Virus record (IMG/VR): IMGVR_UViG_2974630879_000001
Coordinates: 12,336 to 76,335 of that record
Length of the DNA: 64,000 nucleotides
Source: a virus
Taxonomy: Duplodnaviria > Caudoviricetes
Reading direction: 5' to 3' (one strand)
Shown: piece by piece, positions 5,257 to 12,843 of the stretch
Layout of the letters: the number at the start of each line of letters is the position of its first letter
Numbering within the stretch: the stretch's first letter is position 1
Translations under genes and position numbers: made by a program
The notes under the pieces: model-generated
What the model was told of the DNA's origin: nothing
The model's input: only the letters and a program-made list of their open reading frames with translations
The model's database searches: none

Positions 5257-5267
5257 TACCGTTTTAT

Positions 5268-5437
5268 GGATTACCTAGGTGTGCAACAGTGGAACGCTTG
5301 GACAATAGCTACGTCTGAGTTAGGTCATTCGAGCGGGATCGGCCCGTACCAAGAAGCTGCCAAGACACTTACCGCAACACCGTCCATGGGGGTGAGAATG
5401 TGAAGGATGAAAGCGGCTTTCACTAGGTAATCCGCCA
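5268..5437 (+). ncRNA. oversized tRNA-like RNA A (170 nt, G-CCA end)
   Basis: Perfect 11-bp terminal stem GGATTACCTAG (5268-5278)/CTAGGTAATCC (5423-5433) followed by G-CCA; internal hairpins; AT at -2/-1. Confidence 0.6.
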
Positions 5438-5445
5438 TATGTAAG

Positions 5446-5471
5446 GGGGCCACTCAATAGGGAGTGGCCCC
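5446..5471 (+). other. 10-bp perfect hairpin immediately 5' of the hammerhead
   Basis: GGGGCCACTC-AATAGG-GAGTGGCCCC; no U-tract follows. Confidence 0.7.
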
Positions 5472-5473
5472 AT

Positions 5474-5523
5474 GCCAATCTGATGAGTCCGTTAGGACGA
5501 AACACACTCTGTGTGTAATTGGC
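5474..5523 (+). ncRNA. type I hammerhead ribozyme
   Basis: GCCAAT-CTGATGA-GTCC(GTTA)GGAC-GAAA-CACAC(TCT)GTGTG-TA-ATTGGC: complete core with three paired stems; predicted cleavage after GTA at 5517. Confidence 0.95.
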
Positions 5524-5864
5524 TGTTTGAGATGAAAGGGTGCCACCCTGGAATCAATATTGTTCAGCCCGTCGCCAATGCGATCATTGGCTAATTCAGC
5601 ACTGAGGATGTGCTGCACCTGTTCAGTACCCTCGCAAGGTACGTTGAACCAGGGGACGCAAGTAACCCTTAGAGGCGTGTATAACCGGGAGTCTAAATCC
5701 GGTGCTGTGTCCTAATTCACAGTGAGTTGATACCAAATAGAGAAGATTAGGCTCGCTTGGTTAAGCACTCGTAGACTTGGCAACTACATACACGTCTCGC
5801 CTTCATATATTTGAGGTAGCAACCCACTTGTGCTCTTGTACAAGATAGTCTAAGGTTGCTGCCA
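5524..5864 (+). ncRNA. putative large structured RNA between the hammerhead and the first tRNA
   Basis: Many 5-11-bp helices, including 5672-5682/5788-5798 and 5815-5824/5854-5863; no credible ORF. Confidence 0.5.
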
Positions 5865-5873
5865 CAACGCTTT

Positions 5874-5949
5874 CGCGGGATAGTTCAGTTGGCAGAACAC
5901 CGGACTCATAATCCGGATGTCGTCGGTTCGAATCCGACTCCCGCAACCA
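5874..5949 (+). tRNA. tRNA-fMet: tRNA-fMet-like (CAT)
   Basis: 76-nt cloverleaf, C1:A72 mismatch, anticodon CAT at 5907-5909, T-loop TTCGAAT, encoded CCA. Confidence 0.93.
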
Positions 5950-5956
5950 GTTTCAT

Positions 5957-6042
5957 GAGGGTGAGTAGCTCTGGCGTGGCATCGGCCATCAACTAGCTGG
6001 AAGCTCATTAACGTCAGAGTTGAGTTCCTGAGACCTTCGCCA
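5957..6042 (+). pseudogene. degenerate tRNA-like element (86 nt, G-CCA end)
   Basis: Six-bp acceptor GAGGGT/ACCTTC, G-CCA, bulged T-arm with loop TTGAGTT; poor D and anticodon arms; same GTTTCAT leader as tRNA-Ser. Confidence 0.55.
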
Positions 6043-6046
6043 GTTT

Positions 6047-6128
6047 TGACCATCTCCCTGTAAATTTCAGTGGAGGCGTCCCTGCCAGCTCACGACCGTG
6101 AGTGGAATTCGCATCAGGGGGATGGTCA
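6047..6128 (+). ncRNA. putative 82-nt structured RNA closed by a 14-bp stem
   Basis: TGACCATCTCCCTG (6047-6060)/CAGGGGGATGGTCA (6115-6128), one G-U pair; inner hairpin CTCAC-GACC-GTGAG. Confidence 0.5.
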
Positions 6129-6131
6129 TCT

Positions 6132-6207
6132 TGTGGGATAGCTCAGTTGGTAGAGCATTGCCCTGATAAGGCAAGGGTCACTGGTTCGAGTCCAGTTCCT
6201 ACAACCA
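6132..6207 (+). tRNA. tRNA-Ile: tRNA-Ile (GAT)
   Basis: 76-nt cloverleaf; anticodon arm TTGCC-CTGATAA-GGCAA; T-loop TTCGAGT; CCA. Confidence 0.96.
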
Positions 6208-6215
6208 GTTTCAAT

Positions 6216-6266
6216 GGGCGGCGCAGATTTGCTCTTTGTGGGTTTAATTCCCATGGCTGTCCACCA
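6216..6266 (+). ncRNA. 51-nt acceptor/T-arm minihelix with alanine identity elements
   Basis: Acceptor GGGCGGC/GCTGTCC (G1-C72, G2-C71, G3-U70), A73, CCA; T-arm GTGGG-TTTAATT-CCCAT; only 14 nt in place of the D, anticodon and variable arms. Confidence 0.65.
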
Positions 6267-6279
6267 GCTCTTTGACAAT

Positions 6280-6365
6280 GGATCGGGTTATCAGATGGGC
6301 GCTGAGGCAGACTGTAAATCTGCCGTCTCAGGACTCGCTTGGTTCGACTCCAAGCTGATCCACCA
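6280..6365 (+). tRNA. tRNA-Tyr: tRNA-Tyr (GTA)
   Basis: 86 nt; GCAGA-CTGTAAA-TCTGC anticodon arm; long variable arm; T-loop TTCGACT; CCA. Confidence 0.93.
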
Positions 6366-6381
6366 GTCAAACACGTTTCAT

Positions 6382-6467
6382 GGGTTGTTCCGCCGTATGG
6401 ACGGCAAGCGGTCTTGAACACCGTGGCATCCGAAAGGTTGAGGGTTCGATTCCTTAACAACCCGCCA
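6382..6467 (+). tRNA. tRNA-Ser: tRNA-Ser (TGA)
   Basis: 86 nt; GCGGT-CTTGAAC-ACCGT; variable arm with GAAA loop; G73-CCA. Confidence 0.93.
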
Positions 6468-6474
6468 TAGCTTC

Positions 6475-6551
6475 ATGGGATTAGCACAGCTTGGTAGTGC
6501 GTCTGCTTTGGGAGCAGAAGGTCACAGGTTCGAATCCTGTATCCCGTACCA
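6475..6551 (+). tRNA. tRNA-Pro: tRNA-Pro (TGG)
   Basis: 77 nt; TCTGC-TTTGGGA-GCAGA; T-loop TTCGAAT; CCA. Confidence 0.95.
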
Positions 6552-6553
6552 AA

Positions 6554-6849
6554 TGAACTTGTAGGAGTAGGACGAGTACAGTCCTGAAGCCGTGCAGCGG
6601 TCTTACTACAGGCATAGCCAGATGGCTGCACTACATCTTGGCACTTGTTCAACTATTGCTGGTGGACCAGCGTAGGCACTCAGCGAACCTGTACTGCCGA
6701 GTTTTCATGGTATGGAGACATAGTTGTTCGAACTGCTACCACATGTACTTCCCCTCGCCGACAGGTCAGACACGGGGAGCTACCATCTCAGGGCAAATCC
6801 CTGAGGGTGAATGAAGATAGATGCCTTCAAGGCATGCGGATAGCAGTTC
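6554..6849 (+). ncRNA. putative structured RNA between tRNA-Pro and tRNA-Thr
   Basis: Perfect 9-bp 6730-6738/6841-6849 closes a three-hairpin junction; a second junction is closed by 6558-6564/6606-6612. Confidence 0.45.
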
Positions 6850-6860
6850 CTTTTCAATAT

Positions 6861-6936
6861 GCTGCCTTAGCTCAGCTGGGAGAGCACCTGCCTTGTAAGC
6901 AGGCGGTCCACAGTTCAATCCTGTGAGGCAGCACCA
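6861..6936 (+). tRNA. tRNA-Thr: tRNA-Thr (TGT)
   Basis: 76-nt cloverleaf; CCTGC-CTTGTAA-GCAGG; CCA. Confidence 0.96.
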
Positions 6937-7105
6937 AGCAGCGGTAGTTATGGGTAACTACCAGTGGTGCGACACTGTTACACAATCCAGATTCTAGATA
7001 CTGGCCGTGTCAAGCAAAAACACAAATGGGAACCCTTTGAGTAACGCCGAGTCCTCATCAGAGAATCAGGCCGTTGCGCTGATCAGCGTTAATCTTCAGC
7101 ACTAT

Positions 7106-7180
7106 AGGGGAATCGTACAGCGGTCAGTACCCCAACCTTTGACGTTGGTAACCTTGGTTCAAATCCAAGTTCCTCTTCCA
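7106..7180 (+). tRNA. tRNA-Gln: tRNA-Gln (TTG)
   Basis: 75 nt; CCAAC-CTTTGAC-GTTGG; T-loop TTCAAAT; CCA. Confidence 0.93.
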
Positions 7181-7191
7181 ATTCTTTTTAT

Positions 7192-7351
7192 GGTGTGGGT
7201 GCGATCAGAGACATCTGATAGCTTCCATAATGCAACTACGTCTGCTTGCAGGCTAGTGAGCTTCTGTACGACATTAGTAGTTGGCTGTTGCAGCCTCACC
7301 AACGTTGTCAAGTACAGCATGCAGGTAATCAATCCTGTGCCTACACCGCCA
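7192..7351 (+). ncRNA. oversized tRNA-like RNA B (160 nt, G-CCA end)
   Basis: 9-bp terminal stem GGTGTGGGT/GCCTACACC plus G-CCA; four arms in cloverleaf order; shares CTACGTCTG with RNA A at a similar offset. Confidence 0.62.
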
Positions 7352-7358
7352 TCTCAAT

Positions 7359-7408
7359 GTCGCCCTGGGAACTACCGGAAGGGTAGTCTTCCGCCTGGGG
7401 CGGCTCCA
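7359..7408 (+). ncRNA. 50-nt hairpin RNA ending in T-CCA
   Basis: 11-bp stem GTCGCCCTGGG/CCTGGGGCGGC followed by T-CCA; AT at -2/-1. Confidence 0.5.
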
Positions 7409-7411
7409 TAA

Positions 7412-7915
7412 AGACTGGATGACTTCATCCTTCAAGACGGTCTATAAATGTCCACGAAGGGTAGTTTGTCCCTACTAGAACGGGATAGTCAGTTGTGAGT
7501 CCGAATTCTTTAATACGAACTCTCCGTGCATACAGTTGCAGGATTTCAAACACGTAAACTACCAGAACCTGACAGATGTAGTCCTTGAGGCTGCATCTGG
7601 GAATTCTTCCGCAAGTTAGTGACTGACGGTGTAGCTATCGCGCTGCCGTAAAAACATTGTGAGACCTGAGAGGGAGGTGATATCACCCACGACGGTCGGC
7701 GAACACTAGCCTGATCAGCTAAAAAGCTAGGAGAATTTCCAGATGTTGCTTCAACAAGAAGAGCGCATGGCTTATCAACCATAACGCATAGATGCTTGGC
7801 TTACCTAAGCAACATCGTCTACAGACCCACTTTGCTGAGTGCTCAACAGAGAGCCGTAGCTTCCGAATGTGATCCCCTGTCACGGTAGAAGTTATGCGGA
7901 GTCATGATCCGGCTC
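7412..7915 (+). ncRNA. putative ~500-nt structured RNA
   Basis: Uninterrupted 17-bp helix 7593-7609/7730-7746, 8-bp 7460-7467/7556-7563, 6-bp 7851-7856/7910-7915; no credible ORF. Confidence 0.5.
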
Positions 7916-7925
7916 AGCTCCCCTT

Positions 7926-7960
7926 AAAAGCTCAGACATTCGTCTGGGCTTTTATTTTTT
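7926..7960 (+). terminator. intrinsic terminator closing the RNA island
   Basis: AAAAGCTCAGAC-ATTC-GTCTGGGCTTTT followed by ATTTTTT. Confidence 0.85.
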
Positions 7961-10425: not shown

Positions 10426-12843
10426 GTGGAAGTCGCTAACACTGACCGTAAGGTCAACGCTGCACTCATTGGTAGTGCCGGTGAATCTCATGCGGTACAG
10501 GTTGCGGGCACTCGTGAATTCATCGAGATGCTATCTTCGAATCTGTACTCTCGACCCAAGGAAGCCATGATCCGTGAGGTTCTCTGCAATGCAGATGACG
10601 CTCACAAGGATGCTGGTTATACCGGTCCAATCGAAATCGTCATTGAAGATGACAACACACTGATCATCCGTGATCGTGGTCTGGGTATACCGCACGACAA
10701 GATGCATCTGATCTACGGTACCTACGGTGGGTCAACCAAGAAGAAAGACAGTATGGCCACCGGTGGCTTCGGTCTGGGCTGTAAGTCCCCGTGGTCCTAC
10801 ACGGATGCATTCACCGTAGCCAACTGCCATGCCGGAACCAAGACGATCAATACGATGCTGCGAGTCAGCAACGATCATGGGGGCCTGCCTGCAATCATTC
10901 CGATTGCTAACTTCCCTACTGACGAAACCGGTCTTGAAGTTCGTATCGACATCAAGCCGAATGACATTCGAGAAATTCGTGGACTGATAATTAATGCAGT
11001 CCACCGTGGTGGCATGAATGCTACCCTCAATGGGGATGTGCTGGACAGGATCGACTATCCAAGTGACCAAAGCTATGTGTTCGTTGAGAACAGTCATCTG
11101 AATCAAAAGATCATGGTCAAGTACGGTGCCGTGCTTTACCCCGTCGATGATCAAGATGTCTATCGTGAATTCTACAGAATGATCACTGATTACTTGAATC
11201 ATGGACAGACACTGATCCTCTTGGCTCCAGCTGATAGTCTGATCATCTCACCCAATCGAGAAAATGTTTCGTATCTTGACAAGACTCGTAAGCAGTTGTA
11301 CTTGCTGTTGCGTGAATTCATGGAAGAGATCAACAAGCGTGCGGAGCCTTATGCACGTCAGCTGATTCGAGAGACTAATGCTCTTGAAATTAAGAGCACA
11401 AAGCTGGAGTGGCTCAATCAAGTTCATCTAGCTGCTTGGATCAGTCACACCTTTATCAACAGAGGCAAGAGTAAGCTTGACGTATTCGGTCGAGTGATTC
11501 ACTCAATGCTGTTGTTGAATTACCCCAAGCAATTTCATAAGGCGAGTCTGAAGCAACGATTCAAACTCAGTCAGGAATACGTAAATCCAGGCTGGGAACG
11601 TTCTATGCTTCAACAGCTGAAGTATGCAGCTTTGGGGGATCGTAGCCAGCGTAGCAACACTTTCTTCAAACAAGCTGTGTTTCGATTTATGAGTCTGTCA
11701 CGACGCATGGGTCTAAGTAATTCTCAGCTTCGCTTTGGCGAACGTGAGCAAATCTACATGCGTGGATCGAAGTACAACTTCGGTCGGCATACCAGCACAT
11801 CTGTGCCGATTGAAGATTTTGTCTACAGAAGTATGCAACAGTTGGATGACCAAATTCCTTGGCTTCAGCCTGCTGTAGTGCTTACGCATACCATCAAGGG
11901 AATTGATGACTCAACTGTTCGTAGTACGCATAGAGCATTCTTTGCTGTTGTCATTCCACGTAGTGGTCAAAGCCGGTTTAGTATTGCAGATATTAGTGCT
12001 TACTATAAAAAAGCTGGGCTATCGGTTCTAGATCTGACTCCCAGTCAGAAGCTACTTACAAAAGCTAAGGGTGAAACCAAAGCTGTTAAGTATCCGACAC
12101 TGGGTATGCTTCGAATGATCAAAGCAACTACCTACGGTGACAAGTATATTCTGGAAAAGGCACTGACACTTTCAGTAAAAGACAATGGCTGTGAAAAGCC
12201 GTTGGCTTATATGAAAATTGCAGCACGTTCTGGAACATACGTCACGTCACCTATTGGTATGCATGACGATCACTTCCAAAAGCTTGTGTCATTGATTCAT
12301 GATGACACTGCAATTGTCACGACAGAAGCTGAGGTCAAGAAGCTGAAGAAGTTAGGTGCAATTGACTATCGCCAGATGATCTACGATCAAATTGCAGCTA
12401 TCTGGGCAGATCCAAAGGTGCGACAGGCGTATGCTTGGAGGCCAAAGGAAGATGGTCATAACGCTCACGGGCGTAGCATCAGAACATTGACGTCCTACCT
12501 CAGCAGTCCTTGGTACCGTAAAACATTTCAGCTTCCTGAAGTTGATTTGAGCAGCAGCATGAAGAAGAAGTTGAACCTGCTTTACACTTTCGTGCTTGCC
12601 TCTCACTGGTTCCTTACTGTTGATGAAGTTGTTAAGGACATTCAGAACATCACGAAGATGATGGCAGCAATGCGTAACAACAACGAACCATGGAAAGTGA
12701 AGTACATGTTCCAGTTCATCGAAACAAACCCACTCTTCCAGGGTAGTGTTAATGTCGATGAAATTCTCAAACTGAAGTCAATCGCAACTGATCCTAAGCT
12801 CATCACTAAGCTGGATCAGATCCTCAAAATCGTCATGGAGTAA
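10426..12843 (+). CDS. rIIA: rIIA-like protein
   Basis: N-terminal GHKL ATPase motifs (REVLCNADDAH, IRDRGLGI, GGFGLGCKSP); GTG start after GGAGG; paired with rIIB. Confidence 0.85.
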   Translation: MEVANTDRKVNAALIGSAGESHAVQVAGTREFIEMLSSNLYSRPKEAMIREVLCNADDAHKDAGYTGPIEIVIEDDNTLIIRDRGLGIPHDKMHLIYGTYGGSTKKKDSMATGGFGLGCKSPWSYTDAFTVANCHAGTKTINTMLRVSNDHGGLPAIIPIANFPTDETGLEVRIDIKPNDIREIRGLIINAVHRGGMNATLNGDVLDRIDYPSDQSYVFVENSHLNQKIMVKYGAVLYPVDDQDVYREFYRMITDYLNHGQTLILLAPADSLIISPNRENVSYLDKTRKQLYLLLREFMEEINKRAEPYARQLIRETNALEIKSTKLEWLNQVHLAAWISHTFINRGKSKLDVFGRVIHSMLLLNYPKQFHKASLKQRFKLSQEYVNPGWERSMLQQLKYAALGDRSQRSNTFFKQAVFRFMSLSRRMGLSNSQLRFGEREQIYMRGSKYNFGRHTSTSVPIEDFVYRSMQQLDDQIPWLQPAVVLTHTIKGIDDSTVRSTHRAFFAVVIPRSGQSRFSIADISAYYKKAGLSVLDLTPSQKLLTKAKGETKAVKYPTLGMLRMIKATTYGDKYILEKALTLSVKDNGCEKPLAYMKIAARSGTYVTSPIGMHDDHFQKLVSLIHDDTAIVTTEAEVKKLKKLGAIDYRQMIYDQIAAIWADPKVRQAYAWRPKEDGHNAHGRSIRTLTSYLSSPWYRKTFQLPEVDLSSSMKKKLNLLYTFVLASHWFLTVDEVVKDIQNITKMMAAMRNNNEPWKVKYMFQFIETNPLFQGSVNVDEILKLKSIATDPKLITKLDQILKIVME

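Follow-up and report, generated by a model that had tools for sequence, protein, structure and literature searches.

Seven tRNAs, non-tRNA units, a hammerhead motif and a conserved 500-nucleotide RNA in one island of an N4-like phage

Besides tRNAs, the tRNA region of bacteriophage T4 gives rise to RNAC and RNAD (species 1 and 2), two small RNAs that have no known role (PMC3014915), and host RNase P matures the tRNA precursors of T4 in a manner that depends on the 3′ CCA (PMC11143913). RNase P recognises U at position −1, a G+1/C+72 pair, a 12-bp stack of acceptor and T stems and an RCCA end that pairs with the P15 loop; it also cuts hairpin models and non-tRNA phage RNAs, namely the C4 antisense RNA of P1/P7 and M3 RNA, whose ends it forms via an acceptor-like helix (PMC11143913). 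Hammerhead ribozymes occur in phages and prophages, within long phage transcripts (PMC3088659), and theta ribozymes, which are hepatitis delta virus (HDV)-like, are physically linked to phage tRNA genes, where they serve in end formation (PMC10879173). In mitochondrial tRNA punctuation, t-elements, which are tRNA-like structures other than tRNAs, guide the tRNA-processing enzymes in cutting a long transcript (PMC1920247). Here we describe an island at positions 5257–7960, on the plus strand, of a 64,000-nucleotide (nt) window, the whole stretch of DNA analysed, taken from IMG/VR record IMGVR_UViG_2974630879_000001 (positions 12,336–76,335). Within 2.7 kb the island holds 7 tRNAs, a hammerhead and about twelve folded units other than tRNAs, and with slightly better than even confidence we read it as a stable-RNA operon of an N4-like phage, processed by the ribozyme and the host tRNA machinery. 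The most solid new result is a conserved large RNA at 7413–7924 together with its widespread 5′ pseudoknot.

Like RNAC and RNAD, the non-tRNA units of the island sit within a phage tRNA cluster, and it is by this position that they are likened. Unlike the T4 case, the island has many more non-tRNA units as well as a hammerhead and a 500-nt RNA, and blastn of its elements against 50,697 phage records returned no match, T4 rnaC and rnaD included. C4 and M3 are single regulatory RNAs in other settings, whereas here several units lie among tRNAs and their cleavage is predicted. Theta ribozymes are HDV-like, lie directly 3′ of a tRNA and belong to gut phages of Bacteroidota and Bacillota; here, by contrast, the phage is one of Xanthomonadales and a type I hammerhead stands at the head of its entire island. 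The mitochondrial system is organellar and sets mRNA ends, whereas the island has no mRNAs between its units. The large RNA resembles ROOL and GOLLD, which are structurally conserved phage RNAs, several hundred nucleotides long, discussed alongside tRNAs; it differs in that lineage-specific domains follow a 50-nt pseudoknot at its 5′ end, and neither Rfam model matches it at E ≤ 10. The island thus extends known phage themes (T4 small RNAs, phage hammerheads and theta ribozymes) and is not a new kind of system. A preliminary description of this DNA, made from the sequence alone, had known of no described system with this combination, overlooking T4 RNAC and RNAD (PMC3014915) and the RNase P-matured C4 and M3 RNAs (PMC11143913).

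CCA-ended units and a hammerhead among seven tRNAs

The source record is a 76,335-bp IMG/VR phage with direct terminal repeats. Among named phages, the closest to it are Schitoviridae from two genera, Pokkenvirus (Xanthomonas phage PB119 and Stenotrophomonas phages Pokken, Paxi and Piffle), which the record resembles, and Philippevirus (Philippe). All five carry a 2–3-kb tRNA island in the same place, behind homologues of a 681-amino-acid and a 136-amino-acid protein. Viral and metagenome contigs scanned with these two upstream proteins yielded only relatives of at most 52% identity, all lacking the island. A search for sequencing runs listed no RNA run, but four DNA runs (X1, X2, X4 and X5) gave closer relatives as contigs that are 90–97% identical to parts of the island. 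No open reading frame (ORF) within 5257–7960 matched Pfam or PHROGs, and the majority of these ORFs overlap tRNA genes; the genes flanking the island do match PHROGs. The earlier impression that the region holds no credible ORF is therefore borne out. ARAGORN called exactly 7 tRNAs, all on the plus strand between 5874 and 7180, the number given before. Rfam placed 5 of the 7 above its cut-off, with both class II tRNAs weak against the tRNA-Sec model, and at permissive thresholds its models returned only tRNAs and weak hammerhead matches across the window and 11 related loci.

Five further plus-strand elements combine paired ends, one unpaired base and CCA, as a reading of the sequence upholds. 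Element 1 (5268–5437) is a multi-arm RNA of 170 nt; its closing helix has 11 bp, then a bulge and 2 bp before G-CCA. Element 2 (5957–6042), the weakest of the five, has 86 nt and a 6-bp terminal stem with one G-U pair before G-CCA. Element 3 (6216–6266) is a 51-nt minihelix made of a 7-bp acceptor and a T-arm-like hairpin, then A-CCA. Element 4 (7192–7351) is a 160-nt multi-arm RNA with an 11-bp closing helix and G-CCA, and element 5 (7359–7408) a 50-nt hairpin-like RNA with an 11-bp terminal helix and U-CCA. Every one of them has AT at −2/−1 and a G at +1 that forms the G+1/C+72 pair; the same AT precedes four of the seven tRNAs (Tyr, Ser, Thr and Gln), in agreement with the earlier count. 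The discriminator is a purine in four elements (G in 1, 2 and 4, A in 3) and U in element 5. Elements 2–5 start 7–11 bases after the preceding CCA, behind tRNA-like spacers (gtttcat, gtttcaat), and the leaders of elements 1 and 4 both end in TTTTAT. The terminal stack spans 11–13 bp in elements 1, 4 and 5, 7 plus 5–6 bp in element 3, and 6 bp plus an uncertain arm in element 2. Judged from these features, elements 1, 3, 4 and 5 would satisfy the substrate rules of RNase P, element 2 less clearly. The rules assumed in the preliminary description (U at −1, an RCCA end and acceptor-like substrates) agree with the published account (PMC11143913).

To judge this pattern against chance, we compared the non-tRNA spacers with dinucleotide shuffles. 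A stem of 7 bp followed by one base and CCA was found 10 times, against 2.9 ± 1.8 expected, and the same arrangement with T at −1 was found 7 times, against 0.63 expected, a count reached by 0 of 100 shuffles. Four control tails (CAC, ACC, CCT and GGA) gave no excess over shuffles, and on these results we take the CCA-unit pattern to be real. The fold z-scores are −2.86 for element 4, −3.1 for element 5 and −1.07, which is not distinctive, for element 2. Every relative examined (PB119, Pokken, Piffle and Philippe) has at least one long-helix CCA unit of its own beside the tRNAs; that of PB119 has 115 nt, a 13-bp terminal helix and a fold z of −3.7. A sixth candidate minihelix (5818–5864, plus strand) has 47 nt, ends in CCA and has a fold z of −2.45, with A at +1 and no AT leader.

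None of the five elements was called a tRNA by ARAGORN, nor by Rfam models in cmscan at E ≤ 10, the check that had been proposed, and ARAGORN found no transfer-messenger RNA (tmRNA). The tmRNA-type combination of G3-U70 and A73 occurs in element 3 only, whose 51 nt leave no room for a tag. As a separate observation, element 3 has G1-C72, G2-C71, G3-U70 and A73, the acceptor features used by alanyl-tRNA synthetase. Elements 1 and 4 have the 9-mer CUACGUCUG in common; we considered them as paralogues and dropped the idea, as their alignment has no wider similarity beyond that 9-mer.

A type I hammerhead with a complete core lies at 5474–5523 on the plus strand, where a ribozyme had been noted before. 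The core comprises CUGAUGA (5480–5486), GAA (5499–5501), the A15.1-U16.1 pair (A5502-U5516) with which stem III begins, and H17 (A5517) in a GUA triplet, which places the predicted cut between A5517 and A5518. In the minimum-energy fold, stem II has 4 bp and a GUUA loop and stem III has 6 bp, both of them capped; the open stem I (GCCAAU/AUUGGC) was read from the sequence. The motif would be expected to self-cleave. In the close relatives, the sole difference listed within the motif is in loop II (GUUA to GUGA), and Philippe, from the other genus, has a second type I hammerhead heading its island, with an analogous hairpin abutting it. The hairpins that flank the hammerhead covary. A 10-bp GC-rich hairpin (5446–5471, plus strand) stands two bases 5′ of stem I and together with the hammerhead has a fold z of −4.9; it is kept in X2 through the compensatory changes 5453 C>U and 5464 G>A. 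Downstream, a multi-hairpin RNA of about 355 nt (5518–5873, plus strand) would extend from the ribozyme cut to tRNA-Met and includes the minihelix at 5818–5864 and a hairpin at 5574–5591, in which 5577 A>G and 5588 U>C convert an A-U pair into G-C in X2. This hairpin repeats both strands of stem I, so that an alternative pairing is possible; in X2, the compensatory change ends the match of its strands to stem I.

The island closes with an intrinsic terminator (7925–7960, plus strand) made of a 13-pair stem (7925–7954) and a T run, as had been described. No sigma-70-like promoter was predicted between 4500 and 8500. Because no such promoter lies inside the island and a single terminator stands at its end, transcription probably runs through the whole as a single long untranslated RNA and may continue into it from the upstream genes.

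A conserved RNA of about 500 nt and its pseudoknot

The last third of the island is a structured RNA of about 500 nt (7413–7924, plus strand) found in both Pokkenvirus and Philippevirus. It is alignable in all six phages as conserved blocks between variable inserts, and RNAalifold predicted 85 pairs, 25 of them with compensatory changes. For its core, the consensus energy was −41.6, against −5.5 ± 2.8 in column shuffles, and the number of compensatory pairs was 23, against 5.2. A long-range GGGU/ACCC pairing proposed by RNAalifold was dropped, GGGU being part of pseudoknot stem S2. Two copies of CAGAUGU and their partners CAUCUG and ACAUC allow alternative helices in 6 of 6 sequences. In the six phages, CAUCUG pairs either within a hairpin (7573–7599) or with CAGAUG (7742–7747), extending a long helix; CAGAUGU in turn pairs alternatively with ACAUC (7815–7821), giving a conserved set of mutually exclusive helices (7573–7746 in the window). 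Models of ROOL, GOLLD, the group I intron and RNase P RNA gave no match in the window at E ≤ 10 or in relatives at E ≤ 1 and E ≤ 0.5, and a likeness of 7413–7924 to RNase P RNA or a group I intron was therefore set aside as having no support from covariance models.

At its 5′ end the RNA opens with an H-type pseudoknot (7413–7462, plus strand). Stem S1 (7413–7417 with 7438–7442) follows the pattern GNCUG/CGGN′C and stem S2 (7427–7433 with 7456–7462) the pattern NNCCUUC/GAAGGNN, with invariant loops GAUGACUU, AAGA and UAAAUGUCYAN. Pattern scans yielded 8 and then 15 further IMG/VR contigs, as well as an Ottowia prophage that carries Erf-like and RecE-like genes. Across 26 distinct phage sequences, 98.7% of cells are paired; one S1 pair alternates between GC (12), AU (9) and UA (5), and the covariation score of the pseudoknot was reached by 0 of 500 shuffles. 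The carriers are N4-like phages, phage contigs of about 37–53 kb and the Ottowia prophage, temperate phages thus being included. Among the carriers found by the scans the sequence around the pseudoknot is unrelated; the pseudoknot always opens a long ORF-poor stretch, with a tRNA 0.1–1 kb downstream in several lineages. CCA lies 6–15 nt upstream in about 9 of the 26 sequences, and in carrier L061 a tRNA with a CUA anticodon (1043–1119 after turning the sequence; called tRNA-Pyl, an amber suppressor) lies about 830 nt upstream. An Rfam search of the pseudoknot in the window and related loci matched no family, and a text search of the literature for the motif found none, the word matches being to the fungal NL4 primer.

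Several other identities were considered for the motif, which occurs once in the window. That uniqueness, and the failure of GGAUGA/UCAUCC to be kept in variants, speak against a DNA promoter or a simple hairpin; the hairpin is out because both pseudoknot stems covary and GGAUGA/UCAUCC does not persist. A small ORF (MTSSFKT...) was rejected since loop 3 carries indels of 2 nt and 1 nt that disrupt the reading frame, the nucleotides themselves being conserved, and a −1 frameshift signal was rejected since no ORF is present and only one or two sequences have a slippery A-run upstream. An HDV-like or theta ribozyme is a nested double pseudoknot with P3/L3 and P1.1 between the P2 and P1 strands; it would need room for P3, which the 4 nt (AAGA) between the 5′ strand of S2 and the 3′ strand of S1 do not give. 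Three invariant blocks match E. coli 23S rRNA at 759, 2050 and 2283, and mimicry of that RNA was discarded as chance, the shared 8-mers not exceeding shuffles (P about 0.14). The invariance of the loops would be explained by a self-cleaving ribozyme or by a binder of a conserved host machine.

Modules without CCA, cassette turnover and the tRNAs

Other plus-strand modules fold without a CCA end in the window. An 82-nt module (6047–6128) has a 14-bp closing helix and a fold z of −4.87. Three conserved modules that, like the large RNA, are absent from the preliminary description show covariation. The one at 6552–6732 is homologous to the 5′ half of CCA-ended elements of 199/200 nt in Pokken and Paxi (blastn identity 81–84%; homologous part 6552–6650) and in the window has lost the closing stem and CCA. 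An RNA of about 120 nt at 6733–6852, common to five phages, has a closing helix of about 16 bp and a fold z of −3.5; at its 3′ end the window and PB119 have CCU where Pokken, Paxi and Piffle have CCA. RNAalifold predicted 34 pairs in it, 8 with compensatory changes, the closing helix being invariant and the inner hairpins covarying. The 169-nt module at 6937–7105 is 85% identical to a segment of PB119 and contains 4 compensatory pairs in the two-sequence alignment.

Comparison with the close relatives revealed that whole units turn over like cassettes: recombination at their borders adds, removes or exchanges them. None of the four relatives carries element 3, and in X1 and X4 the joint (6203 to 6263) falls within a shared ACCAG, so that exactly one unit is missing. 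The module at 6047–6128 is likewise exactly missing in an X1 contig, while element 2 is kept in 4 of 4. Other units are replaced: 30 other bases stand in place of element 5 in X4 and X5, 120 other bases replace 5677–5793 in X4, 153 bases stand in place of 6553–7105 in one close relative, and the inner domain of the large RNA (7600–7739) is swapped in X1, X2 and X4. Joints in the contigs fall at the unit borders 6046/7, 6203/6263, 6551/2, 7106, 7352 and 7415. Element 1 is about 97% identical in X2, where 5418 U>C changes G-U to G-C in the arm beside its 3′ strand; upstream of 5446, the X4 contig has a sequence unlike that of the window. Element 4 is about 90% identical in X2 and X4, with two changes in a hairpin loop (7211/7212), and its hairpin at 7240–7253 is longer in X1 and X2 through matched insertions. 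For elements 1 and 4, micro-variation alone supports the internal hairpins.

The seven tRNAs, identified by ARAGORN and Rfam on the plus strand, are tRNA-Met (CAU, 5874–5949), tRNA-Ile (GAU, 6132–6207), tRNA-Tyr (6280–6365), tRNA-Ser (6382–6467), tRNA-Pro (6475–6551), tRNA-Thr (UGU, 6861–6936) and tRNA-Gln (UUG, 7106–7180). tRNA-Met has the C1xA72 mismatch, a hallmark of bacterial initiators, but lacks the three G-C pairs of the anticodon stem, and may be an initiator, an elongator or Ile2. For tRNA-Thr, a pairing is predicted between its ACCA end and a UGGU 30 nt downstream, with a covarying hairpin in between (6933–6968 in the window); both strands are identical in PB119, and the pairing is therefore without covariation. 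Among related loci, ARAGORN called phage tRNAs with four-base anticodons (gcaa, accg) at L005 (3255–3327) and on the minus strand of L028 (7273–7342 after turning); such anticodons imply 8-nt anticodon loops, and the Philippe tRNA is annotated as tRNA-Cys. PB119 (L001, 5651–5750) has a 100-nt Rfam tRNA match of 49 bits, annotated as tRNA-His and not called by ARAGORN, which may be a tRNA with an insertion.

A proposed processing pathway and its rivals

In the processed operon that we favour, the hammerhead would cut itself after A5517 and split the upstream mRNA and element 1 from the RNA array. Host RNase P would then cut the 5′ end of each tRNA and also of those non-tRNA units that offer U at −1, G at +1, an acceptor-like stack of 11–13 bp and N-CCA, and 3′ trimming by the host would halt at the encoded CCA. 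Discrete small RNAs would result that are unable to decode because they lack an anticodon arm, and the last third would form a separate folded RNA of about 500 nt with the conserved pseudoknot at its head. Co-transcription, ribozyme activity, RNase P cleavage and a function of the small RNAs are all steps that we infer.

Several results weigh against this pathway. The hammerhead scored 25 bits in cmscan (E 0.029), against a gathering score of 48.5 for the type III model; it falls below the Rfam cut-off because this best model of the clan is circularly permuted relative to 5474–5523. No tertiary contact between stem I and loop II was identified in it, and stem I is short. The predicted folds of elements 1 and 2 are no better than those of shuffled sequences, and element 2 has just 6 terminal pairs. 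The excess of CCA units is present in the window and PB119 and not in Pokken, Paxi, Piffle or Philippe, and at least 6 structured modules of the island have no CCA end, the genus-conserved ones mostly among them. For both reasons CCA does not hold as a rule for the island at large, and 'CCA-punctuated', as the preliminary description had it, fits only a part of it. By blastn, the five elements had no homologue in the five named relatives or in 50,697 GenBank phage records. None is essential, since the close relatives lack element 3 and two of them lack element 5. The conservation among related Schitoviridae to which the preliminary description had looked was thus not found, and of its proposal that RNase P excises the units, the fit to the substrate rules stands and the conservation of the five elements does not. 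On comparison of the sequences, no parts of the island are less conserved than the elements it stressed.

The CCA elements could instead be the debris of a fast-turning tRNA array, that is, truncated, fused or decayed tRNAs and duplicated spacer-plus-CCA junctions whose acceptor ends are kept by descent, with incidental processing or none and no function of their own. Element 3, with its acceptor stem and T-arm-like hairpin, does resemble a tRNA after an internal deletion, and element 2, at 86 nt, has the length of the neighbouring class II tRNAs. The loss of element 3 in all four close relatives and the replacement of element 5 in two fit such an origin, as does the orphan status of the elements among GenBank phages; just upstream of the large RNA, relatives have T-arm-like pieces that lack acceptor ends, and the module at 6552 no longer has the closing stem and CCA of the CCA-ended element to which it is homologous. 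A 7-bp acceptor stem, however, does not decay into a helix of 11–13 bp, and elements 1, 4, 5 and the PB119 element, in the range of 50–170 nt, have perfect terminal helices of that length. No element scores as a tRNA even at E ≤ 10, the hairpins within elements 1 and 4 are preserved or improved by micro-variation, and the enrichment is specific to CCA with T at −1. We regard debris as an unlikely account of the elements, yet one to be kept in view.

Two further readings appear improbable to us. The non-tRNA units could be scaffolds that space and fold the precursor for cutting of the tRNAs and the large RNA and are then degraded; they have leaders and trailers in common with the tRNAs, closed hairpin modules without CCA are also present (6047–6128 and 6937–7105), and the handling of multimeric precursors by RNase P has been called an open question (PMC11143913). 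But tRNAs Tyr, Ser and Pro lie 7–16 nt apart without such spacers, single units are dropped in close relatives that retain the flanking tRNAs, and a mere spacer needs neither an encoded CCA nor a 12-bp ruler; we give this reading little credence. About equally doubtful is the idea that the anticodon-less CCA helices are decoys for enzymes that act on acceptor ends (defence nucleases or CCA-modifying toxins), sparing the real tRNAs. Retron Eco2 acts against Schitoviridae and nicks double-stranded acceptor stems 6–7 nt upstream of CCA, and HEPN-MNT clips CCA tails (PMC12916289). The elements offer that very substrate, a long acceptor-like helix with CCA and no anticodon, and their variable presence in close relatives is typical of counter-defence cargo; the case is nevertheless purely circumstantial. 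A decoy role is testable because retron Eco2 both defends against Schitoviridae and nicks acceptor stems.

A joint reading, in which the CCA helices are defence decoys and the pseudoknot-headed RNA of about 500 nt represents a new class of large phage RNA, seems rather improbable as a whole. The decoy targets could be retron Eco2-type nucleases, HEPN-MNT or CCA-modifying toxins. The pseudoknot could act as a ribozyme, or it could bind a conserved host machine, for instance as a put-like antiterminator that works on untranslated transcripts.

It has been known since T4 that small RNAs of no established purpose accompany the tRNAs in phage clusters, and the island is a very dense example, with cultivable relatives at hand in PB119, Pokken, Paxi, Piffle and Philippe. 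It adds new RNA objects, a covariation-supported RNA of 500 nt and a 50-nt pseudoknot with invariant loops that is absent from Rfam and common to N4-like and temperate phages. If the CCA helices are processed and functional, they would represent a way in which phages put host tRNA maturation to a use other than decoding, and one possible role would be to counter defences aimed at the acceptor ends of tRNAs.

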